Below are positions 2,089 to 47,053 of a stretch of DNA of 64,000 bases, piece by piece. The position numbers were made by a program, and so were the translations under genes. Numbering within the stretch: position 1 is the stretch's first letter; each line of letters starts with the position of its first letter. The notes under the pieces are model-generated. The model did not search any database. It was not told the DNA's origin and worked only from the letters and a program-made list of their open reading frames with translations. Origin of the DNA: Escherichia coli (GTDB lineage: Bacteria > Pseudomonadota > Gammaproteobacteria > Enterobacterales > Enterobacteriaceae). The DNA is taken from NCBI RefSeq assembly GCF_001677475.2, contig NZ_CP015229.1; one strand, written 5' to 3'.

Positions 2089-3626
2089 GCGTCCTCCATT
2101 GGCGTAAACAGGCTACTTTCCATCAGGCGCGGCTGGTTGATAATTGGACGGAAAGCCATGAACGGCAGAATGTCGCGGTCAATCTCCACGCCCGGCGCGA
2201 TTTCAATTAATTCAACGCCTTCTGCCGTTAACTGAAACACCGCGCGTTCAGTGATATACAACACTTCCTGACCGCTGTGCTGTGCGTAGGCGGCGCTAAA
2301 AGTGATTTTTTCCACCTGAGTAACCAGTTTAGGGATTTGACCTGACTGGGCGATATGCAAGCCATCTGGCGTTACATCAATCTTGCTGCCTTTGGCGTCG
2401 AACGTGCCGCAGAACACCACCTTACGGGCGTTTTGCGCAATTTCGAGAAATCCGCCGGGGCCAATCAGATTGCCATTGAGATGGGAGACGTTGACGTTAC
2501 CGTACTGATCCATCTCTCCCATGCCGAGGAAGGTGATATCGATCCCTCCGCCACTGTAGAACTCAAATTGATCGAGTGATGGAATAATGGCATCGGCGTT
2601 GCGGGCGCAGCCGAAAAACGCATCATCCAGCATCATACCGTTATGCACGCCTTGCTCGACGCTCAGCCATAAACTTTGGTAAGGCACGCCTTCGCGCAGC
2701 GCTACTCCTGGAATGCCGCCGGGAATACCAAAGCCAAAGTTGGTTGAAGCGCCAGCTACCAGTTCGCGTGCTGCCCGACGGGCAATCAGGCGACGTACCG
2801 GATGACTAACCAGTTCAATAGCGTCGTTAGAACTCAGACGGCGATGTTGGCCGCTGATGGTCAGGTCGTAACCGCCAAGATAGGTTTGTGGCTGTTCGCG
2901 GTGTTCAACGATGCCATCAACCAGAATGCCCGGTAATTTGACTCGGCGTGGTTCAATCGCGCCAGCTTCCAGCACATCGCGTACCTGTACAAACACTTTG
3001 CCGCCGCTGTTGTGTGCTGCCAGCGCCATGGAATAGCTATCCATATCAATCGCTTCTTCTTCAAGGCTGACGTTGCCCCGAGGATCGGCATAAGTGCCAC
3101 GCAAAATCGCGTAATCGACTTTGAAAGGGCGATAACGAAGTTTGGTTTCACCGTCGATTTCAATCAGTTCTACCAGGTCGTCGGTAGTGCATTCATTCGA
3201 CTTACCGCCGCCATTGCGTGGATCAACAAACGATCCCAGCCCAACGTGGGTAAAAAGCCCCGGACGTCCGGCGCCGATCTCCCGTAGCAGTGCCTGAATC
3301 ACGCCACCAGGAAAACAATAGGCTTCAATCGCGTTATTTTTTACCAGCGCCTGCATTTTGGGTGACCAGGTAAAGTGTCCGGCAATAATGCGTTTGAGCA
3401 TTTCAGCATGAGCGAAGCGGTTCGTGCCTTTGCAGTCGCGATCGCCAATGCCCAGCGAGTGGATTAATGTCAGATCGCGCGGGTGTCCGGTTTGCAGGAA
3501 GCGCGCTTCAATGGCTGCCAGAATATGGTCGGCTTCCACCATGCCGCCGCCGTTACCGCTAATGGCAATGGTTGCGCCATCCTGAATTTGCGCCGCCAGT
3601 GCCTCGGCGGTTGTTATCTTACGCAT
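2085..3626 (-). CDS. Family I CoA-transferase (acetyl-CoA hydrolase/transferase-like, fused subunits), 513 aa
   Basis: ORF with N-terminal AISGNGGG and a central glycine-rich region typical of fused CoA-transferases; 9-bp spacing to the upstream gene. Confidence 0.7.
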   Translation of the reverse strand: MRKITTAEALAAQIQDGATIAISGNGGGMVEADHILAAIEARFLQTGHPRDLTLIHSLGIGDRDCKGTNRFAHAEMLKRIIAGHFTWSPKMQALVKNNAIEAYCFPGGVIQALLREIGAGRPGLFTHVGLGSFVDPRNGGGKSNECTTDDLVELIEIDGETKLRYRPFKVDYAILRGTYADPRGNVSLEEEAIDMDSYSMALAAHNSGGKVFVQVRDVLEAGAIEPRRVKLPGILVDGIVEHREQPQTYLGGYDLTISGQHRRLSSNDAIELVSHPVRRLIARRAARELVAGASTNFGFGIPGGIPGVALREGVPYQSLWLSVEQGVHNGMMLDDAFFGCARNADAIIPSLDQFEFYSGGGIDITFLGMGEMDQYGNVNVSHLNGNLIGPGGFLEIAQNARKVVFCGTFDAKGSKIDVTPDGLHIAQSGQIPKLVTQVEKITFSAAYAQHSGQEVLYITERAVFQLTAEGVELIEIAPGVEIDRDILPFMAFRPIINQPRLMESSLFTPMEDA

Positions 3627-3635
3627 ACAATTTCC

Positions 3636-4412
3636 TTAGTGATTATGGAAGCTCACGCTACTTTTTTCGGCAAATGCCTGCGTCGCCTGCTGGCAATCCT
3701 GAGTGGCGGACATTAATCCAGCCAGTAACTGGTGTGGGTATTCAGCGTGTTTATTTTCCAGTGCCAGAATCAGCTGCTTAATATGCGCCAGTGCCACCGG
3801 ACCACATTTTTCCAGCTGCGCTAACTGGTTCGCCATCCAGCTTTCCACCTGTTCTTTTTCTACTACTTCATCAATTAAATTCGCCGCCTGGGCTTCATGC
3901 GCCGTCAGACGTTTACCTAGCATCAGCATCTGGCGACCGACCACTGGGCCGACCTGATTAATCACGCGTTCAATGCCCATCCAGCCAGGCACCATGCCGA
4001 GCATGACTTCCGGGTTAGAAAATTTCGCGCTGGGGCGAGCGATTCGAATATCGCAGCACAAGGCAAGTTCAATACCGCCGCCGATGGTATGACCGTTGAG
4101 ATTCGCAACCGTTAATTGCGGTAAATTGCGCAGGCGATTAAAAACGTCATTGCCGCGTTTAATCCATTTTCTGCCCATATCTAATGGCGAATAGGCCGAC
4201 CACGATTTAATATCACCGCCCGCACAAAAGAATTTATCGCCGATTGCCGTTAATTCGACTAATCGTAATGTGGTGTCGTTTTCAATTTCATTTAAATAAT
4301 GGTCGAGAGATTCAATCATCTCTTCGTTAATAGCATGACATTTCTCTTCACGGTTCAACGTCAGGCGGCAGGAAGCCGCCGCTCTGCTGAACAGAACGGG
4401 TTGGTCACTCAT
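3636..4412 (-). CDS. Enoyl-CoA hydratase/isomerase (crotonase fold), 258 aa
   Basis: ORF with crotonase-like motifs (FCAGGDI, HTIGGGIELAL). Confidence 0.75.
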   Translation of the reverse strand: MSDQPVLFSRAAASCRLTLNREEKCHAINEEMIESLDHYLNEIENDTTLRLVELTAIGDKFFCAGGDIKSWSAYSPLDMGRKWIKRGNDVFNRLRNLPQLTVANLNGHTIGGGIELALCCDIRIARPSAKFSNPEVMLGMVPGWMGIERVINQVGPVVGRQMLMLGKRLTAHEAQAANLIDEVVEKEQVESWMANQLAQLEKCGPVALAHIKQLILALENKHAEYPHQLLAGLMSATQDCQQATQAFAEKSSVSFHNH

Positions 4413-17536: not shown

Positions 17537-18091
17537 TTATTTGAGCAACTTTTGCAGCAGGTCCATCACTTGCTGCACCTCTTCCGGTGTGAGCGCCCCG
17601 TCTTTGGCCCATTGCACGCGACCGTCTTTATCCAGCACCACTACAGCGGAACTTTCTTCATCCAGCTGCCAGGCACCGCGCGCGACGCCATTGCTATCGA
17701 CAATAAACTGCGACCAGGGATAAAGCTTTTTATTACTCTCCAGACTGCTGCGCACAAACATGCCGGAACCCGGAATTGCGTCGTCGGTGTTAACAATGGT
17801 GGTGGTCTGGTAACGATCGTGCGGTAACTTCGCTGATTTAATCGCTTCAATCAGCGTCGCGTTTTTCTCTTTTGCAGAGGTGCGACCAGCAATATGTTGC
17901 AGTACTCGCACTTTTCCCACTAACTGCGCGCTGTTCCAGGTTTTGTAGCTAAACTGATCTTTATCAAGCACCAACTCGCCACGATCGGTAATGCCAATCG
18001 GCGGCACTCGCTGACCGGTTTCGAACTGATGTGCGGAAGCCATCATCGGCAACAGCAGGCAGGTGAGTGCCAGAATCTTGCGTAGGGTCAT
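17537..18091 (-). CDS. ytfJ: Periplasmic protein YtfJ
   Basis: 184-aa ORF with N-terminal signal peptide; synteny. Confidence 0.9.
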   Translation of the reverse strand: MTLRKILALTCLLLPMMASAHQFETGQRVPPIGITDRGELVLDKDQFSYKTWNSAQLVGKVRVLQHIAGRTSAKEKNATLIEAIKSAKLPHDRYQTTTIVNTDDAIPGSGMFVRSSLESNKKLYPWSQFIVDSNGVARGAWQLDEESSAVVVLDKDGRVQWAKDGALTPEEVQQVMDLLQKLLK

Positions 18092-21151: not shown

Positions 21152-26703
<5,552 letters not shown>

Positions 26704-31084: not shown

Positions 31085-31639
31085 AAGTTGATTGGTGACT
31101 GGCTGGTAAAAGAAGTCAACGGCAAACCGTGTAACGTGGTTGAGTTGCAGGGGACGGTTGGGGCAAGCGTTGCCATTGACCGTAAAAAAGGCTTTGCCGA
31201 AGCCATTAAGAGTGCGCCAAACATCAAAATCATCCGCTCACAGTCCGGTGACTTCACCCGTAGTAAAGGCAAAGAAGTGATGGAGAGCTTTATCAAAGCG
31301 GAAAACAACGGCAAAAACATCTGCATGGTTTACGCCCATAACGACGACATGGTGATTGGCGCAATTCAGGCAATTAAAGAAGCGGGACTGAAACCGGGCA
31401 AAGATATCCTCACGGGTTCCATTGACGGCGTGCCGGATATCTACAAAGCGATGATGGATGGCGAAGCGAACGCCAGCGTTGAATTGACGCCGAACATGGC
31501 AGGCCCCGCTTTTGACGCGCTGGAGAAATACAAAAAAGACGGCACTATGCCTGAAAAGTTGACCCTGACCAAATCCACCCTTTACCTGCCTGATACTGCA
31601 AAAGAAGAGTTAGAGAAGAAGAAAAATATGGGGTATTGA
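31085..31639 (+). pseudogene. ytfQ: ytfQ 3' fragment
   Basis: Reading frame resumes at ...KLIGDWLVKEVNGKPCNVVELQG... and runs to the native stop; the track ORF begins at a TTG inside the IS end (31070). Confidence 0.85.
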
Positions 31640-31649
31640 GGGACATCAA

Positions 31650-36678: not shown

Positions 36679-38052
36679 ATGCGCATTCATATTTTAGGAA
36701 TTTGTGGCACGTTTATGGGCGGTCTGGCGATGCTGGCGCGCCAGTTAGGCCATGAAGTAACGGGTTCGGACGCCAATGTGTATCCGCCGATGAGCACCTT
36801 ACTTGAGAAGCAAGGCATTGAACTGATTCAGGGTTACGATGCCAGCCAGCTCGACCCGCAGCCGGATCTGGTGATTATTGGCAACGCCATGACCCGTGGA
36901 AATCCGTGTGTGGAAGCGGTACTGGAAAAAAACATCCCTTATATGTCAGGTCCGCAGTGGCTGCACGATTTTGTGCTGCGCGACCGCTGGGTGCTGGCCG
37001 TTGCCGGTACACACGGCAAAACCACCACGGCGGGAATGGCGACCTGGATTCTGGAACAGTGTGGTTACAAACCGGGATTTGTGATCGGCGGTGTGCCGGG
37101 GAACTTTGAGGTTTCGGCGCGTCTGGGCGAAAGCGACTTCTTTGTTATCGAAGCGGATGAGTATGACTGCGCCTTCTTCGACAAACGCTCTAAATTTGTC
37201 CATTACTGCCCGCGTACGCTGATCCTCAACAACCTTGAGTTCGATCACGCCGATATCTTTGACGACCTGAAAGCGATCCAGAAACAGTTCCACCATCTGG
37301 TGCGTATCGTTCCGGGGCAGGGGCGTATTATCTGGCCGGAAAACGACATCAACCTGAAACAGACCATGGCGATGGGCTGCTGGAGCGAGCAGGAGCTGGT
37401 GGGCGAGCAAGGTCACTGGCAGGCGAAAAAGCTGACCACCGATGCTTCCGAATGGGAAGTCTTGCTGGATGGCGAAAAAGTGGGCGAAGTGAAATGGTCG
37501 CTGGTAGGCGAACATAATATGCACAATGGCCTGATGGCGATTGCGGCGGCTCGCCATGTTGGTGTAGCGCCGGCAGATGCCGCTAACGCGCTGGGTTCGT
37601 TTATTAATGCTCGTCGCCGTCTGGAGTTGCGTGGTGAAGCGAATGGCGTCACGGTATATGACGATTTTGCCCATCACCCGACGGCGATTCTGGCAACGCT
37701 TGCGGCGCTGCGTGGCAAAGTTGGTGGTACGGCGCGCATTATTGCTGTGCTGGAGCCGCGTTCGAATACCATGAAAATGGGGATCTGCAAAGATGATTTG
37801 GCACCGTCACTAGGTCGTGCCGATGAAGTCTTCCTGCTGCAACCGTCGCATATTCCGTGGCAGGTGGCAGAAGTGGCAGAAGCCTGCGTTCAGCCTGCAC
37901 ACTGGAGCGGCGATGTGGATACGCTGGCAGATATGGTGGTGAAAACCGCTCAGCCTGGCGACCATATTCTGGTGATGAGCAATGGCGGTTTTGGTGGGAT
38001 CCATCAGAAACTGCTGGATGGACTGGCGAAGAAGGCGGAAGCTGCGCAGTAA
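36679..38052 (+). CDS. mpl: UDP-N-acetylmuramate:L-alanyl-gamma-D-glutamyl-meso-diaminopimelate ligase (murein peptide ligase)
   Basis: 457-aa Mur-ligase-family ORF divergent from fbp. Confidence 0.93.
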
Positions 38053-40744: not shown

Positions 40745-41209
40745 TCATCGCAAATGATGCACCACCTGATTGCTGCTGCCGCGCCAGATCAGGGAAGGGT
40801 CTTTTAAATCCTGCACAAATTTGCCGTCGACCAGCACGTTAATCAAATCAACAACCTGCATTTGCGCAGCGTTGAGTTCGTCGAGTTTATACCCTGTCCA
40901 CACCCAGATGTCTTTACCCGGACACTCGGCGCGGATGCGTTGTACCAGTTTCAGAATATCCGGCACGTTTTGCGGATGCAGCGGATCGCCGCCGGAGAGG
41001 GAAATCCCCTGGCGTTTGATGCGAGTGTCATTCAGATCGTTAATGATCTGGTCTTCCATTGCTTTGGTAAATGGCTGACCGGAATTTACCCGCCAGGTGC
41101 TTTTGTTATAGCAACCGGGGCATTCATGAACACACCCGGAGACAAACAGGGTGCAGCGAGTGCCGGGGCCGTTGACGATGTCGACAGGATAGTACTGATG
41201 AAAGTTCAT
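40745..41209 (-). CDS. nrdG: Anaerobic ribonucleoside-triphosphate reductase activating protein (radical SAM)
   Basis: 154-aa ORF with a CxxxCxxC-type cysteine cluster. Confidence 0.93.
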   Translation of the reverse strand: MNFHQYYPVDIVNGPGTRCTLFVSGCVHECPGCYNKSTWRVNSGQPFTKAMEDQIINDLNDTRIKRQGISLSGGDPLHPQNVPDILKLVQRIRAECPGKDIWVWTGYKLDELNAAQMQVVDLINVLVDGKFVQDLKDPSLIWRGSSNQVVHHLR

Positions 41210-41394: not shown

Positions 41395-43533
41395 TTAACC
41401 TATCTGCCCATTTCCCAAATGTTTAACGCGGCGCTTAACTTCTTCCTGCTTACCAGCGTTAAACGGACGTGCATCCGGGCTACCTAAATATCCGCACACG
41501 CGGCGAGTCACCGACACACGGGAGGCGTCATGGTTACCACATTTCGGGCAAGTGAAGCCTTTGCTGGTGCACTCGAACTCGCCAGTAAAGCCACACTCGT
41601 AGCACTCATCGATCGGCGTATTGGTGCCGTAATACGGTACATGCTGATAGCTGTAATCCCAGACATCTTCCAGCGCCTTCAGGTTGTGCTGAATGTTTGG
41701 ATACTCGCCGTAGCAAATGAAACCACCGTTCGCCAGCGGCGGGTAAGGCGCTTCAAAGTCGATCTTGTCGTACGGGTTCACCTTCTTCTCCACATCGAGG
41801 TGGAAACTGTTGGTGTAGTAACCTTTATCGGTTACGCCCGGCACCACGCCAAACTCAGCAGTATCGAGACGGCAGAAGCGGTCGCACAGGTTTTCACTTG
41901 GCGTGCTGTAGAGACTGAAACCATAACCCGTTTCTTCTTTCCACTGATCCACTGCCTGACGCAGACGTTCAACAATCGCGATACCTTTCGCGCGAAGCTG
42001 CTCGTTGTCGTAAACATGTTCGCCGCCGAACAGCGCGTTAATGGTTTCGTGGATGCCGATGTAACCCAGCGAAATAGACGCACGACCGTTTTTGAAGATT
42101 TCAGAAACGTCGTCGTCAGCATTCAGACGCACGCCACAAGCGCCTTCCATATAGAGGATCGGGGCTACGCGCGCTTTCACGCCTTCGAGACGAGCGATAC
42201 GGGTCATCAGTGCCTTACGTGCCAGCACCAGACGTTCATCCAGCAGCTTCCAGAAGGTGGCTTCATCGCCTTTTGCTTCCAGAGCAATACGCGGCAGGTT
42301 CAGGCTGATCACGCCGAGGTTGTTACGACCATCGTGGATCTGCTCGCCGTTTTCATTTTCCCACACGCCGAGGAAGCTGCGGCAGCCCATCGGGGTTTTA
42401 AACGAACCGGTGACTTTCACTACCTGATCGTAGTTCAGGATATCCGGATACATGCGCTTGCTTGCGCACTCCAGCGCCAGCTGTTTGATGTCGTAGTTCG
42501 GATCGCCTTTTTTATGGTTCAGGCCATCGCGAATCGCAAACACCAGTTTCGGGAACACCGCCGTTTTACGGTTTTTACCGAGGCCGGCGATACGGTTACG
42601 CAGGATAGATTCCTGAATCAGGCGCGACTCCCAGCTGGTGCCCAGACCAAAACCAAAGGTTACAAACGGCGTTTGACCGTTGGCGGTATGCAGGGTGTTT
42701 ACTTCGTACTCCAGCGACTGGAAGGCATCGTAGCACTCTTTGATGGTACGAGAGTTAGCGTAGCCTTCGGCGTCCGGGATGTTCCACTCTTCCGCGGTCT
42801 TGCGATGTTTGTTGTAGCTGGCGGTGACAAATGGTGCCAGCACTTCATCGATACGGTTAATGGTGGTGCCGCCATAAATATGGCTGGCAACCTGAGCAAT
42901 AATCTGCGCAGTTACAGCGGTTGCCGTAGAGATCGACTTCGGCGGTTCAATCTCGGCGTTCCCCATTTTAAAGCCCTGGGTCAGCATGCCTTTCAGGTCG
43001 ATCAACATGCAGTTGAACATCGGGAAGAACGGCGAGTAATCGAGATCGTGATAGTGAATATCGCCACGCTCATGTGCCTGCACCACGTCACGCGGCAGCA
43101 GGTGCTGGCGTGCATAGTGTTTAGCCACGATCCCGGCCAGCAGGTCGCGCTGGGTTGGAATCACCTTGCTGTCTTTGTTGGCGTTTTCGTTGAGTAACGA
43201 GGAGTTGGTCTGCTCGACCAGACCACGGATCTCCTGGTTCAGGCGACCGCGTTTTTCACGTTCAATGTCGCGATCGTGACGGTACTCGATGTAAGCACGA
43301 GCCAGTTGTTTGTATGGACCTGACATCAGCTGGTTTTCAACTGCGGTCTGGATCTCATTGATATCCACTTGGTTGCGGCCCTGCATCTGCTCGCTGACAA
43401 CCGCGGCAACAGTGGCGCAATAATCGGCATCATCGACTTCCGCTGCTTTAGCTGCACGCAGAATCGCTTCTTTGATGCGCTCTGATTTAAACGGCACTTT
43501 GCAGCCGTCTCGTTTCATCACATGCGGTGTCAT
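41395..43533 (-). CDS. nrdD: Anaerobic ribonucleoside-triphosphate reductase (class III RNR)
   Basis: 712-aa ORF with C-terminal glycyl-radical region and CxxC zinc ribbon. Confidence 0.95.
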   Translation of the reverse strand: MTPHVMKRDGCKVPFKSERIKEAILRAAKAAEVDDADYCATVAAVVSEQMQGRNQVDINEIQTAVENQLMSGPYKQLARAYIEYRHDRDIEREKRGRLNQEIRGLVEQTNSSLLNENANKDSKVIPTQRDLLAGIVAKHYARQHLLPRDVVQAHERGDIHYHDLDYSPFFPMFNCMLIDLKGMLTQGFKMGNAEIEPPKSISTATAVTAQIIAQVASHIYGGTTINRIDEVLAPFVTASYNKHRKTAEEWNIPDAEGYANSRTIKECYDAFQSLEYEVNTLHTANGQTPFVTFGFGLGTSWESRLIQESILRNRIAGLGKNRKTAVFPKLVFAIRDGLNHKKGDPNYDIKQLALECASKRMYPDILNYDQVVKVTGSFKTPMGCRSFLGVWENENGEQIHDGRNNLGVISLNLPRIALEAKGDEATFWKLLDERLVLARKALMTRIARLEGVKARVAPILYMEGACGVRLNADDDVSEIFKNGRASISLGYIGIHETINALFGGEHVYDNEQLRAKGIAIVERLRQAVDQWKEETGYGFSLYSTPSENLCDRFCRLDTAEFGVVPGVTDKGYYTNSFHLDVEKKVNPYDKIDFEAPYPPLANGGFICYGEYPNIQHNLKALEDVWDYSYQHVPYYGTNTPIDECYECGFTGEFECTSKGFTCPKCGNHDASRVSVTRRVCGYLGSPDARPFNAGKQEEVKRRVKHLGNGQIG

Positions 43534-43768
43534 GATCGCTCCATATTTTTAAGAACAGGTTATCCACAGAAATTGGGAAAGGCGTTTTCCGGTTTTTTTG
43601 TTTCGTTTTCCGGTGCTTTCCGCAATCGCCATCCGCTTATCCACAACGCCGCACCTTTTTCGTGGGGAGCTGTAGTAGCAATTATAGTCGATTAATACAA
43701 CATATTGGGTTGGGACGCATTTTAAAGTCTATATATAGTGCTTTGCATCAAGGATGTTTGAACTTTTT

Positions 43769-43782
43769 TTGATGTAGCTCAA
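43769..43782. promoter_or_regulatory. Candidate FNR binding site TTGAT-gtag-CTCAA in the nrdDG promoter region
   Basis: 9/10 match to the FNR consensus TTGAT-N4-ATCAA upstream of an anaerobically induced operon. Confidence 0.45.
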
Positions 43783-43926
43783 AGTAAAAAGCAGAGCGTA
43801 CGGATGACGGGCGCTACAGCGATATGTAAATTTTTTAATGAATTTTTTGATTATAAAATCAACAAAAACAACATACTGACAGGCAAAACCCCGGAATGAC
43901 AGGCATTACCGGGGCTTAGGGAAGAT

Positions 43927-45582
43927 TTACTTCTGTAACCACCAGACAGCCTCAAAAGGCCGTAAATTCATGGCACAGGGTTGTGGTGAGGCTTCTTCGT
44001 AGTTATGCATCACAAGCTGCCAGTTGCCGCGCATTTGCCCTGGCTGCCAGGGTTGGATCTCACGGCTAAGGTTGGCAATGACCAGCAAGGTTTGTCCCTT
44101 CCATTCACGGCGATAGCACCACAATACAGGGCTGTTTGGCAGCAGATCCTGGTAATTACCCCATGTCAGAACGGCTTCTTGCTTACGCAGTGCGATTAAC
44201 TTTTGGTAGGTGTAAAACACCGAGGACTCATCGGCCAGCGCGGCTTCTACGTTGATTTGTTGATAGTTATCGCCCAGGCCAATCCACGGTTCGCCAGCCG
44301 TAAACCCGGCATTATCGCCGTTGCTCCATTGCATGGGCGTGCGGCTGTTGTCACGGGATTTACTGGCGAGGATTGCCAATAACTCGTCGGCATCACGCCC
44401 ATCGTTGCGCAGCTCGGCAAACATATTGAGGCTCTCTACGTCGCGATAGTCAGTAATGCGCGTGAAATGCGGGTTGGTCATGCCAATCTCTTCGCCCTGG
44501 TAGATATACGGCGTTCCCTGCATGCCATGCAGCACCATCGCCAGCATTTTTGCCGCAGGCACGCGGTATTCACCTTCATCACCAAAGCGAGAAACAATGC
44601 GCGGCTGATCGTGGTTACACCAGAACAAGGCATTCCATGCCACGTTGTGCATTCCTTGTTGCCAGTGGCGGAACAATGTTTTCAACGCCACAAAGTCAGG
44701 TTTAGCCAGCGTCCATTTTTCACCGCCTGGATAATCGACCTTCAGGTGATGAAAATTAAAGGTCATCGACAATTCACTACCTGTCAGAGCCGCGTATCGC
44801 TGGCAATGCTCAAGGCTGGTGGAGGACATTTCACCTACGGTCATTAACCCGCGTGGCGTAAACACATCGCGGTTCATCTCGTGCAAAAACTCGTGTGCTC
44901 GTGGCCCGTCAGTGTAGAAGCGACGCCCGTCGCCATCCAGGTCTTCAGGGAAACGCGGGTCTTTGGAGATCAGATTCACCACATCCAGGCGCAACCCGTC
45001 GACCCCACGATCGGCCCAGAAATCACAGACTTTTTTCAGCTCTGCGCGTACCGCTGGATTCTCCCAGTTGAGATCCGCCTGTTCTGGTGCAAAGAGATGC
45101 AAATAGTACTGTTCGCTTTCCGCATGCCAGCGCCACGCACTACCGCCAAATTTTGAACGCCAGTTGTTCGGTGGCGTTTCTGGTTCGCCATCGCGCCAGA
45201 TATAAAACTGGCGGTAAGGGCTTTCTTTGTTCAGCGCCTCGCGAAACCAGGCATGTTGGGTAGAGGTATGGTTAAACACCATATCGAGAATGATACGAAT
45301 CCCGCGCGATTTTGCCTGCGTCACCAGTTCGTCAAAATCGTCCAGCGTGCCGTAGGTGGGATCAATCGCCGTATAGTTCGCTACATCGTAACCGTTATCG
45401 ACCTGCGGAGAGACATAAAAGGGGGTTAGCCAGATGGCATCAACGCCCAGTTTATGCAGATAGTCCAGGCGTTGGATAACGCCACGTAAATCGCCGGTGC
45501 CGCTACCCGTGGTGTCCTGAAAACTCTTTGGATAAATCTGGTAGATAACGCCGTTTTGCCACCAGTGGGGAAGATGAGTCAT
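43927..45582 (-). CDS. treC: Trehalose-6-phosphate hydrolase
   Basis: 551-aa GH13 ORF from MTHLPHWWQNGVIYQIYPKSF. Confidence 0.93.
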   Translation of the reverse strand: MTHLPHWWQNGVIYQIYPKSFQDTTGSGTGDLRGVIQRLDYLHKLGVDAIWLTPFYVSPQVDNGYDVANYTAIDPTYGTLDDFDELVTQAKSRGIRIILDMVFNHTSTQHAWFREALNKESPYRQFYIWRDGEPETPPNNWRSKFGGSAWRWHAESEQYYLHLFAPEQADLNWENPAVRAELKKVCDFWADRGVDGLRLDVVNLISKDPRFPEDLDGDGRRFYTDGPRAHEFLHEMNRDVFTPRGLMTVGEMSSTSLEHCQRYAALTGSELSMTFNFHHLKVDYPGGEKWTLAKPDFVALKTLFRHWQQGMHNVAWNALFWCNHDQPRIVSRFGDEGEYRVPAAKMLAMVLHGMQGTPYIYQGEEIGMTNPHFTRITDYRDVESLNMFAELRNDGRDADELLAILASKSRDNSRTPMQWSNGDNAGFTAGEPWIGLGDNYQQINVEAALADESSVFYTYQKLIALRKQEAVLTWGNYQDLLPNSPVLWCYRREWKGQTLLVIANLSREIQPWQPGQMRGNWQLVMHNYEEASPQPCAMNLRPFEAVWWLQK

Positions 45583-45631: not shown

Positions 45632-47053
45632 TTAAACAATGTCCAGCGTGCCCAGGCGGTATTTCCGCTGATAGATAAACGAGGTGAGTACAATCGGGAT
45701 GATGATGGCGATAGCCATTGCCAGCGCAAACACCTGCCAGTAGCTCGGTTGAATCGAGAGAATTCCCGGCAGGCCGCCTACGCCGATGCCATTCGCCATA
45801 ACGCCGTTCAGGCCGCAGAGCAATCCTGCCAGACCAGAACCAATCATCGCGCACAGCATCGGGAAGCGATATTTCAGGTTGATGCCGTACATTGCAGGCT
45901 CAGTGACCCCAAGCCAGGCGGAGATCGCCGCAGGCACGGAGATCTCGCGTTCATTGTGCTTGCGGCTGGAAATGATAATGCCTATCACGGCGGAGCCCTG
46001 AGCGATATTCGACAGCGCAATCAGCGGCCACACTGGCGTACCACCCATGCTTTGAATCATCTGCAAATCAATAGCAAGCGTGGTCTGGTGTACCCCGGTG
46101 ATCACCAGCGGGGCGTACAGGAAGCCAAACAATGCCGCGCCAATCGGAGCAAAGCTGCCGGTCATCAGGTGACGGACCGCAAAGGCAACCCCATCGCCAA
46201 TCATGCGCCCAAACGGACCAATCAGTGCATGGGCGAGGAACACCGCGAGGATCAGCGAACAGACGGGCACCACCACCAGATAGAGGTAATCCGGCACGAT
46301 GCGTTTAAGGCGAGTTTCAATAACGCCCAGCGCCAACCCGGCTAACAGTGCCGGGATCACCTGCGCCTGATAGCCCACTTTAGCGATGCTGAACATGCCA
46401 AAGTCCCACACTTCCGGCAGCTGCTGCCCGAGCAGATAAGCGTTCATCAGCTGTGGAGAAACCAGCGTTACGCCAAGCACGATACCAAGGATCGGCGTGC
46501 CGCCCATTTTTTTCACCGCGGACCAGCAAATCCCGACCGGCAGGTAGAAGAAGATCGCTTCACCGATCAACCACAGAAAATCGTAGATCGTTTGCAGGGA
46601 AGGGTACATTTGTGCCAGCGTTTGACCGTTGCTCATGGGCAAATCGCCGATCACATTGCGAAAACCGAGGATCAAACCGCCGCTAATCAACGCGGGCAGC
46701 AACGGGAAGAAGATCTCCGCGAAATGAGAGATCAACTGCTCATGCCATTTCATATTCTGCCGGGCGGCTTTTTTTACCTGCTCTTTATCAACCTGCGCCT
46801 GTCCGGTTGACGCTATCAGTGCTTGATAGTAATCACCCACGTTGGTGCCAATCACCACCTGAAATTGCCCGGCATTGGTGAAACAGCCTTTCACCATGGG
46901 GAGTTGCTCAATTTCTTTCGGTCTGGCATTGGCCGGTTGGTTGAGGACAAAGCGCAGACGAGTAATACAGTGGCTCACCGTCGCAATATTGCCGCGCCCG
47001 CCGACCAGTTCAATCAACCGATCGATATCCGTTTGGTTTATTTTGCTCATCAT
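45632..47053 (-). CDS. treB: PTS trehalose-specific EIIBC component
   Basis: 473-aa ORF with N-terminal EIIB cysteine motif and a membrane domain. Confidence 0.93.
   Translation of the reverse strand: MMSKINQTDIDRLIELVGGRGNIATVSHCITRLRFVLNQPANARPKEIEQLPMVKGCFTNAGQFQVVIGTNVGDYYQALIASTGQAQVDKEQVKKAARQNMKWHEQLISHFAEIFFPLLPALISGGLILGFRNVIGDLPMSNGQTLAQMYPSLQTIYDFLWLIGEAIFFYLPVGICWSAVKKMGGTPILGIVLGVTLVSPQLMNAYLLGQQLPEVWDFGMFSIAKVGYQAQVIPALLAGLALGVIETRLKRIVPDYLYLVVVPVCSLILAVFLAHALIGPFGRMIGDGVAFAVRHLMTGSFAPIGAALFGFLYAPLVITGVHQTTLAIDLQMIQSMGGTPVWPLIALSNIAQGSAVIGIIISSRKHNEREISVPAAISAWLGVTEPAMYGINLKYRFPMLCAMIGSGLAGLLCGLNGVMANGIGVGGLPGILSIQPSYWQVFALAMAIAIIIPIVLTSFIYQRKYRLGTLDIV

Follow-up and report, generated by a model that had tools for sequence, protein, structure and literature searches.

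Control elements in the treC-nrdD intergenic region of an Escherichia coli chromosome match those known for nrdDG in K-12

Results

Genes and terminator at the locus

The DNA analyzed here, referred to as the window, is a stretch of 64,000 nucleotides whose positions are counted from its first letter. A 601-bp query around the region of interest found a match in 5425 out of 5426 complete E. coli genomes, where it is annotated with treC on one side and nrdD on the other. The stretch is E. coli chromosome; treC and nrdD are separated by the intergenic region 43534..43926, and nrdDG is encoded on the minus strand (Table 1). The gene order, treR-treB-treC-nrdD-nrdG, is that of K-12, in which b4237 agrees with nrdG both in length and in its placement relative to nrdD. 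A previous sequence-only reading had described the region as an AT-rich stretch of 393 bp upstream of nrdDG, which is borne out by the coordinates of the gap and by its GC content (40.2%, vs 50.8% for the whole window). The segment 43820..43870 reaches only 15.7% GC.

The treC terminator folds as RNA with an energy of -17.1 kcal/mol (z = -3.68), and none of 200 shuffled sequences folded as well. A scan with sigma-70 and terminator consensus sequences detected neither the real promoter nor this terminator: the promoter was missed because its -35 element is weak, the promoter being FNR-dependent, and the terminator because its hairpin is imperfect and consists of two stacked helices. An Rfam scan of 43300..44100 returned chance-level matches alone (asR3 and STnc410; E about 0.7-0.9), of which STnc410 was dropped because it is absent from the corresponding loci of Salmonella, Citrobacter, E. 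albertii, Enterobacter and Klebsiella.

Read on the nrdD strand, the order of elements runs from the treC terminator through an AT-rich spacer with a strain-variable palindrome to FNR site 2 and FNR site 1. It continues with NrdR box 1, the probable -10 hexamer TAAAAT, a probable start at 43711, NrdR box 2, a leader of 178 nt, the Shine-Dalgarno sequence and the nrdD ATG.

Table 1. Features of the nrdDG locus, with coordinates in the window and positions relative to the back-calculated nrdDG start
Feature	Coordinates	Strand	Position relative to start	Sequence or size	Remarks
nrdG CDS	40745..41209	-		154 aa	ORF list; K-12 b4237
nrdD CDS	41395..43533	-		712 aa	ORF list; RefSeq annotation of matching genomes; K-12 b4238
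treC-nrdD intergenic gap	43534..43926			393 bp	From treC stop (43929..43927) to nrdD ATG (43533)
Shine-Dalgarno	43539..43542	-		GGAG	5 nt from ATG; read from the sequence
DnaA double box	43548..43569	+	+143..+164	tTTAAGAACAggTTATCCACAg	Perfect 9-mer at 43560..43568
DnaA box, perfect	43637..43645	+	+67..+75	TTATCCACA	Exact match
NrdR box 2	43710..43695	-	+2..+17	ACCCAATATGTTGTAT	6/6 conserved positions
Probable nrdDG start	43711	-	+1	A	Back-calculated from published FNR centres and site coordinates
Probable -10 hexamer	43724..43719	-	-13..-8	TAAAAT	Assigned from published site centres
NrdR box 1	43741..43726	-	-30..-15	GCACTATATATAGACT	6/6 conserved positions
FNR site 1	43738..43751		-40..-27, centre -33.5	TTGATGCAAAGCAC on nrdD strand	Weaker, auxiliary
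FNR site 2	43769..43782		-71..-58, centre -64.5	TTGATGTAGCTCAA; nrdD strand TTGAGCTACATCAA	Primary activating site
GCCCGTCATCCGTAC island	43798..43812	-	-102..-88		Contains (C)TGTAC-like core
TTTACA island	43825..43830	-	-120..-115	TTTACA	Majority-base frequency 0.82
Palindrome-block island	43845..43871				Majority-base frequency 0.71
AT-rich 16-bp palindrome	43847..43862		centre about -143.5	TTGATTATAAAATCAA / TTGATTTTATAATCAA	Perfect TTGAT-N6-ATCAA
treC intrinsic terminator	43886..43917	-		CCCCGG...CCGGGG, then UUUU	Hairpin directly after treC stop codon

FNR sites

The sequence at 43769..43782 had been put forward as a candidate FNR site since it agrees with TTGAT-N4-ATCAA at 9 out of 10 positions. 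Matches to this consensus with one mismatch are not rare in the window (5 observed vs 2.9 expected), and thus a consensus match alone proves nothing. Scoring was done with a symmetric position weight matrix (PWM) built from the 62 sites with a ChIP-seq peak in Table S6 of Myers et al. (2013), with nrdD excluded. With this matrix the candidate scores 17.86 bits, compared with a training median of 15.36, and ranks first among the 63,987 positions of the window. The identical 14-mer, TTGATGTAGCTCAA, is listed for nrdD in the same Table S6 (PatSer 15.68; ln p -14.45, threshold -10.75), and all ChIP data sets of that study, from ChIP-seq and from ChIP-chip, show an FNR peak at the K-12 nrdD locus. 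Published K-12 FNR ChIP-seq summit coordinates lie within about 20 bp of it. The candidate is a functional site and coincides with the published FNR site 2.

In a 2023 SAXS study, the 54-mer TACTTTGAGCTACATCAAAAAAAGCTCAAACATCCTTGATGCAAAGCACTATAT was bound by two FNR dimers in gel-shift and SAXS experiments, with sites centred at -33.5 and -64.5. This 54-mer maps to 43733..43786 with a single mismatch, which falls between the two FNR sites. Roca et al. (2008), as summarized in the SAXS paper, reported site 2 to be necessary and sufficient for anaerobic activation.

FNR site 1 lies exactly 31 bp downstream of site 2, and these two are the only places in the intergenic region where the PWM exceeds 2 bits. 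Site 1 ranks 7 of 63,987 with 10.74 bits, below the 11.88 of the weakest training site, and alone it would miss a genome-wide threshold; one of its half-sites is degenerate (AGCAC). The sequence-only reading had two candidates and left unsettled which of them was functional. The first proved to be so and the second did not, and the real second site is one that had been missed, namely site 1 at 43738..43751, which is degenerate in E. coli and easily overlooked by eye.

Our comparative set comprised the nrdD loci of 80 Enterobacterales species, and conservation was measured as majority-base frequency in an alignment of 51 Enterobacteriaceae sequences, in which unconstrained columns range from 0.45 to 0.52. 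By this measure site 1 reaches 0.98 and site 2 0.88. The commonest form of site 1 in other Enterobacteriaceae is TTGATGCAAATCAC (15.5 bits), which is usually a better match than site 2 in the same loci, and most of 50 Enterobacteriaceae loci retain the spacing of 31 bp. Furthermore, an FNR match of at least 10.5 bits occurs upstream of the NrdR boxes in all 80 Enterobacterales loci, its distance to NrdR box 1 being 40-41 bp in Enterobacteriaceae and ranging from 27 to 75 bp in other families.

NrdR operator

An NrdR operator was defined as two 16-bp boxes carrying C4, A6, A8, T9, T11 and G13 and separated by a linker of 15-16 bp. A single pair in the window agrees at all 12 positions, and it has the 15-bp linker published for nrdDG; the number of such pairs expected by chance was 0.00 (100 shuffles). 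This places the NrdR boxes, whose position could not be settled by eye in the sequence-only reading, at 43741..43726 and 43710..43695. A 12/12 pair is found in 80 out of 80 Enterobacterales nrdD loci, and the majority-base frequency in the 51 Enterobacteriaceae is 0.90 for box 1 and 0.85 for box 2. In addition, a published 57-mer that binds E. coli NrdR in the presence of ATP and dATP (KD 160 nM) is an exact match to 43690..43746, with both boxes inside. Box 1 and FNR site 1 have 4 bp in common. The centres of the FNR and NrdR sites are spaced by 31, 11 and 31 bp, so that all four sites lie on one face of the helix.

Probable promoter and transcription start

An nrdD start was found in neither of two genome-wide start-site data sets, and a literature search for E. 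coli 'nrdDp' found nothing. The comparison with a mapped start, suggested earlier as a check, could be made through the published site positions. Taken together with the centres of the two sites in the window (43744.5 for site 1 and 43775.5 for site 2), the published positions of -33.5 and -64.5 imply, by back-calculation, a start at 43711, a -10 hexamer TAAAAT and a leader of 178 nt, and they place the first FNR candidate at -64.5. The majority-base frequency of TAAAAT across Enterobacteriaceae is 0.94. Further downstream, at 43686..43681 (+26..+31), there is a perfect TATAAT, whose TAnnnT is kept in most genera.

DnaA boxes in the leader

The 64-kb window contains two perfect DnaA boxes, vs 0.32 expected, and both are in the nrdDG leader, where they read TGTGGATAA on the nrdD strand. 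A DnaA double box was taken to be a consensus TTATCCACA preceded, at 2-3 bp, by a second DnaA-box-like 9-mer in the same orientation. One of the two perfect boxes belongs to such a double box, with the layout TTAAGAACA-gg-TTATCCACA (43549..43568), in which the upstream 9-mer has the same orientation and agrees at 6 out of 9 positions. The majority-base frequency is 0.93 for 43637..43645 and 0.84 for the double box. About 70 of the 80 Enterobacterales loci keep at least one perfect DnaA box in the leader. Their arrangement differs between families: in Enterobacteriaceae both boxes have the same orientation at a distance of 77-79 bp, and an inverted pair with about 55 bp between the boxes is found in Yersinia, Serratia, Pectobacterium and their relatives.

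In the ChIP-seq data of Stringer et al. (2024), DnaA gives a peak at nrdD whose coverage is 62 times that of the control, and the double box quoted there, tTTAAGAACAggTTATCCACAg, matches 43548..43569 exactly. Their coordinate 4462739 corresponds to window position 43612, between the two DnaA boxes, in the numbering of NC_000913.3 (offset 4419127); the paper gives version.2, but it is only with version.3 that no more than 200 bp separate the peak from the quoted box. Also, NrdD has been published to be over-expressed in a DARS2 deletion mutant, which fits repression by DnaA-ATP, short of proving it.

Folding of the leader RNA is unexceptional (z = -1.39; 21 out of 200 shuffles fold as well), and the leader has no match in Rfam. 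As the leader is neither unusually structured nor present in Rfam, its conservation acts at the DNA level.

A strain-specific palindrome

The second candidate of the sequence-only reading was an FNR-like pair with 6-bp spacing at 43847..43862. The sequence is present as described, but its spacing, its score and its lack of conservation all speak against an FNR site. Exact copies of TTGAT-N6-ATCAA occur twice in the window (the other is at 24542), and with at most one mismatch there are 6 vs 2.35 expected, which is weak evidence alone. The best FNR PWM 14-mer overlapping the palindrome scores -4.1 bits because its cores are arranged as TGA-N8-TCA and FNR recognizes TGA-N6-TCA.

At this place K-12 reads TTGATTTTTCAACCAG, differing from the window at 43846, 43847, 43850, 43853 and 43854, and two other sampled strains have TTGATTTTTCAACCAG, like K-12. 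The exact 66-bp allele of the window is present in 700 out of 5426 genomes, including Nissle 1917; alleles within 95% of that of K-12 are present in about 4318 genomes, and the share of complete E. coli genomes with the window allele is no more than about a fifth. Comparison across genera shows moderate conservation of the left arm GTTGA and of the AT-rich centre; the right arm varies, also among Escherichia species. We conclude that the palindrome is a strain-specific sequence in an AT-rich spacer and not an FNR site; the tidiest palindrome of the region is a strain-specific accident. It was also considered as a terminator hairpin. Both alleles fold weakly (-5.0 and -6.6 kcal/mol), and since it is followed by a U-tract on neither strand, it is not a terminator.

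Conserved islands upstream of the FNR sites

Three islands upstream of the FNR sites are more conserved than background (Table 1); within the GCCCGTCATCCGTAC island, the segment GCCCGTCATC at 43803..43812 has a majority-base frequency of 0.76. A CTGTACAG-like motif was recognized by eye in loci of Serratia, Yersinia and Edwardsiella. Compared by eye, the islands gave no convincing fit to CRP, IHF, ArcA, NarL/NarP, Fur, PurR, DeoR or TyrR, nor to LexA, NsrR, IscR, sigma-E, sigma-32, sigma-28, sigma-54 or the mar box. The only likenesses seen in this way were a loose Fis-like (G-N13-C) and an ARG-box-like (TGA-N8-TCA) geometry.

Discussion

Our results indicate that this is almost certainly the known regulatory region of E. 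coli nrdDG, with functional elements identical in sequence to those studied in K-12. Both FNR sites, both NrdR boxes, the -10 hexamer and both DnaA box sites are base-for-base the same. The K-12 intergenic region is also 393 bp long and differs by 9 substitutions, none of which is inside the FNR, NrdR, -10 or DnaA elements. One is located between the FNR sites (43762), one in the leader (43599) and two in the treC terminator or adjacent to it (43883 and 43901); the other five are at 43846..43854, where the bases of the window create the palindrome. The window allele is of a minority type, common to strains such as Nissle 1917. The K-12 nrdDG promoter has been treated by Rozman Grinberg et al. 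(2025) and Stringer et al. (2024), and earlier by Boston & Atlung (2003), Torrents et al. (2007) and Roca et al. (2008), according to later papers that cite them. The scan had picked up a real, well-characterized control region, whose control elements are already known and which adds no new biology. The comparison also holds a lesson: position, PWM score and conservation told the real site from its look-alike, and a match to the consensus was by itself not significant.

The same architecture is found in Salmonella. In S. Typhimurium, the nrdDG promoter likewise has a pair of FNR sites and a pair of NrdR boxes, of which box 1 shares bases with an FNR site, and mutation of the NrdR boxes de-repressed it (Panosa et al. 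2010). The S. enterica arizonae locus in our set (L003) has the same spacing and the same DnaA boxes. The strengths of the two FNR sites, however, are reversed: in Salmonella site 1 is the stronger (TTGATGCAAATCAC, 15.5 bits) and site 2 the weaker (TTGTTCTACGTCAA, 14.6 bits), whereas in E. coli site 2 scores 17.9 and site 1 10.7 bits. The E. coli nrdAB promoter likewise has dual NrdR boxes together with a DnaA double box, but unlike nrdDG it is not FNR-dependent, and its DnaA boxes are located upstream of the promoter, not in a long leader.

FNR sites are usually centred at -41.5 in class II promoters and at -61.5 or -71.5 in class I promoters, and -33.5 and -64.5 are unusual places for the centre of an FNR site. 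Among activated promoters, 19 out of 23 have the class II centre of -41.5 (Myers et al. 2013). Two FNR 14-mers per upstream region are also listed in Table S6 of that study for tandem-FNR promoters such as yfiD, ndh, cydA and ompW. The authors of the SAXS paper called the mechanism of FNR activation at nrdDG a remaining mystery. According to published work, [4Fe-4S]-FNR dimers occupy both sites in the absence of oxygen, site 2 being essential and site 1 raising expression further, and together activate RNA polymerase. When dATP rises, an NrdR tetramer with ATP and dATP binds both boxes, the binding itself being published. Because the boxes lie over the flank of the -10 hexamer and the start, and box 1 reaches into FNR site 1, NrdR might block the polymerase and compete with FNR; we infer this occlusion and competition from the geometry. 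DnaA, the occupancy of which on the leader boxes in vivo rests on the published ChIP-seq data, might in turn lower nrdDG expression. Oxygen through FNR, the dATP/ATP balance through NrdR and replication status through DnaA may thereby converge on the anaerobic ribonucleotide reductase.

It would be tempting to see in the palindrome a functional, non-canonical third FNR site far upstream, at about -143.5. Both of its half-sites are perfect, it lies 79 bp upstream of site 2, and its left arm GTTGA is conserved across genera. Yet a rigid dimer of the CRP/FNR type should not span TGA and TCA cores that are 8 bp apart, the normal distance being 6, and even the best overlapping 14-mer has a negative score. 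Even within E. coli the right arm lacks conservation: the sequence in K-12 and in about 80% of genomes is TTGATTTTTCAACCAG. The 54-mer that binds two FNR dimers does not contain the palindrome, site 2 was reported as sufficient (Roca et al. 2008, in the summary of the SAXS paper), and the ChIP-seq summits are about 20 bp from site 2 and not 80 bp upstream of it. A third FNR site is therefore extremely unlikely. The odd centre of -33.5 would also disappear if a second promoter, or the true one, used the downstream TATAAT and started near 43674. FNR site 1 would then be near -70.5, a class I position, with site 2 near -101.5 and NrdR box 2 over the -35 region. The hexamer is a perfect -10 element, and the block 43694..43679 around its widely kept TAnnnT has a majority-base frequency of 0.78. 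However, the published start gives -33.5 and -64.5, the TAAAAT at 43724..43719 is better conserved (0.94), TATAAT lacks a -35-like hexamer 16-18 bp upstream, and the essential FNR site is site 2 and not site 1. We thus regard such a promoter as very unlikely, and the rearranged FNR and NrdR positions that it would entail as very unlikely too. The start at 43711, activated through site 2, remains our preferred reading.

The conservation outside the FNR, NrdR and -10 elements also allows other readings. The upstream islands could be a platform for another protein that tunes nrdDG, such as Fis, H-NS, an ArgR-like binder of TGA-N8-TCA or some other regulator. Several points are suggestive: the frequencies of the islands are 0.71-0.82, vs 0.45-0.52 in neighbouring unconstrained columns, the segment 43820..43870 has 15.7% GC, and GTTGAnnnnnnnnnTC can be fitted by eye to the loose G-N13-C pattern of Fis, its centre being AT-rich. 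Moreover, distant Enterobacterales also have a TGTAC-like core upstream of the FNR site, and H-NS is said in the literature to act on nrdDG. Against this, none of the islands matched a specific motif, Myers et al. (2013) list no enrichment of Fis, H-NS or IHF overlapping the nrdD FNR site in K-12, the right arm of the palindrome is polymorphic, and the conservation could equally reflect DNA curvature or contacts of the RNA polymerase alpha subunit. We therefore consider a further regulator possible but doubtful. As for the leader, its blocks might be conserved as RNA structure, in the form of a riboswitch or an attenuator, and not as DNA sites; in favour of this, the leader is, at 178 nt, a long one, and most genera have a leader of conserved length. 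This idea has hardly any likelihood given the ordinary fold (z = -1.39; 21 out of 200 shuffles) and the empty Rfam result. In addition, conservation is confined to the two TTATCCACA 9-mers and the ribosome-binding region, with the rest at background, and the inversion of the boxes in other families agrees with a DNA site, not with conservation as RNA. DnaA boxes acting as DNA thus account better for the conserved leader blocks.

Going beyond the known elements, we speculate that the islands from -160 to -88 might form the operator of an undescribed regulator of anaerobic dNTP supply, or else that the TAnnnT at +26..+31 might serve as a second promoter or as a sigma-70 pause site; this is unlikely on present evidence. 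The elements of such an operator would be the variable inverted repeat, TTTACA and GCCCGTCATC-(C)TGTAC, the last recurring across Enterobacterales, an assignment that we hold to be just as unlikely. If it were true, a second promoter or pause site at TAnnnT would reconcile the odd positions of the FNR sites.

Conserved sequence upstream of nrdDG

The segment that lies between the two FNR sites upstream of nrdD is well conserved, its CAAACAT reaching a majority frequency of 0.86 in the Enterobacteriaceae alignment, and in most genera, but not in E. coli, it takes the form of a palindrome of 12 bp, CAAACATGTTTG, that extends into FNR site 1. Farther out, upstream of FNR site 2, we observed three islands of moderate conservation, namely a GTTGA/AT-rich block, TTTACA and GCCCGTCATC(C)GTAC, with majority-base frequencies of 0.71–0.82 against a background of ~0.5. 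Serratia, Yersinia and Edwardsiella also have a CTGTACAG-like core, which lies ~30 bp upstream of their FNR site. When these islands were compared by eye with known motifs, none matched. The region also contains a small hypervariable patch, of which at least three alleles occur among Escherichia; five substitutions relative to K-12 fall inside these 9 bp, and 17 were counted across the whole 1001 bp compared.

Elsewhere in the window, the runner-up matches to the FNR matrix, built from 62 other ChIP-supported sites, scored 12.1–13.8 bits (see table).

Coordinates of minor features in and around the nrdDG regulatory region and of runner-up FNR matches
Feature	Position in window	Strand	Sequence	Location
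Third, degenerate NrdR-like box	43663..43678	minus	CTACTACAGCTCCCCA	16 bp after NrdR box 2
Perfect -10-like element	43681..43686	minus	TATAAT	+26..+31 of inferred transcript
Inter-FNR segment	43752..43768			between the two FNR sites
Three upstream islands	43798..43871			upstream of FNR site 2
Hypervariable patch	43846..43854
FNR matrix match	31636..31649		TTGAGGGACATCAA
FNR matrix match	17954..17967
FNR matrix match	37235..37248
FNR matrix match	46823..46836			within ORF corresponding to treB

Elements in the nrdDG leader and operon

The third NrdR-like box has four of the six conserved NrdR positions and is without the critical G13; it resembles box 2 of nrdAB (CTACAGGTAG), and is probably not functional. 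The nearby -10-like element, which could act as a second promoter or as a sigma-70 pause element, is retained as TAnnnT in most Enterobacteriaceae.

The arrangement of DnaA boxes in the leader varies across Enterobacterales. In Enterobacteriaceae the two boxes share the same orientation and lie 77–79 bp apart, and in the loci from outside this family (L051–L074, L077 and L078; upstream of position 1501) two perfect boxes stand in opposite orientation, ~55 bp apart. Upstream of position 1501 in Escherichia sp. ESNIH1 (L030) and the Enterobacteriaceae MAG UBA7338 (L042), the leader is ~100 nt shorter and without DnaA boxes; both loci retain the two FNR sites as well as the pair of NrdR boxes, whose linker is 16 bp long. 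Perfect DnaA boxes are likewise absent from six other nrdD loci (L049, L050, L058, L075, L076 and L079).

Finally, the E. albertii locus (L001) carries, directly after nrdD and between nrdD and nrdG, a sub-threshold Rfam match (3626..3693; 43.5 bits, E = 8e-5; gathering score 59.5) to naRNA4 (CssrE), a REP-like element.
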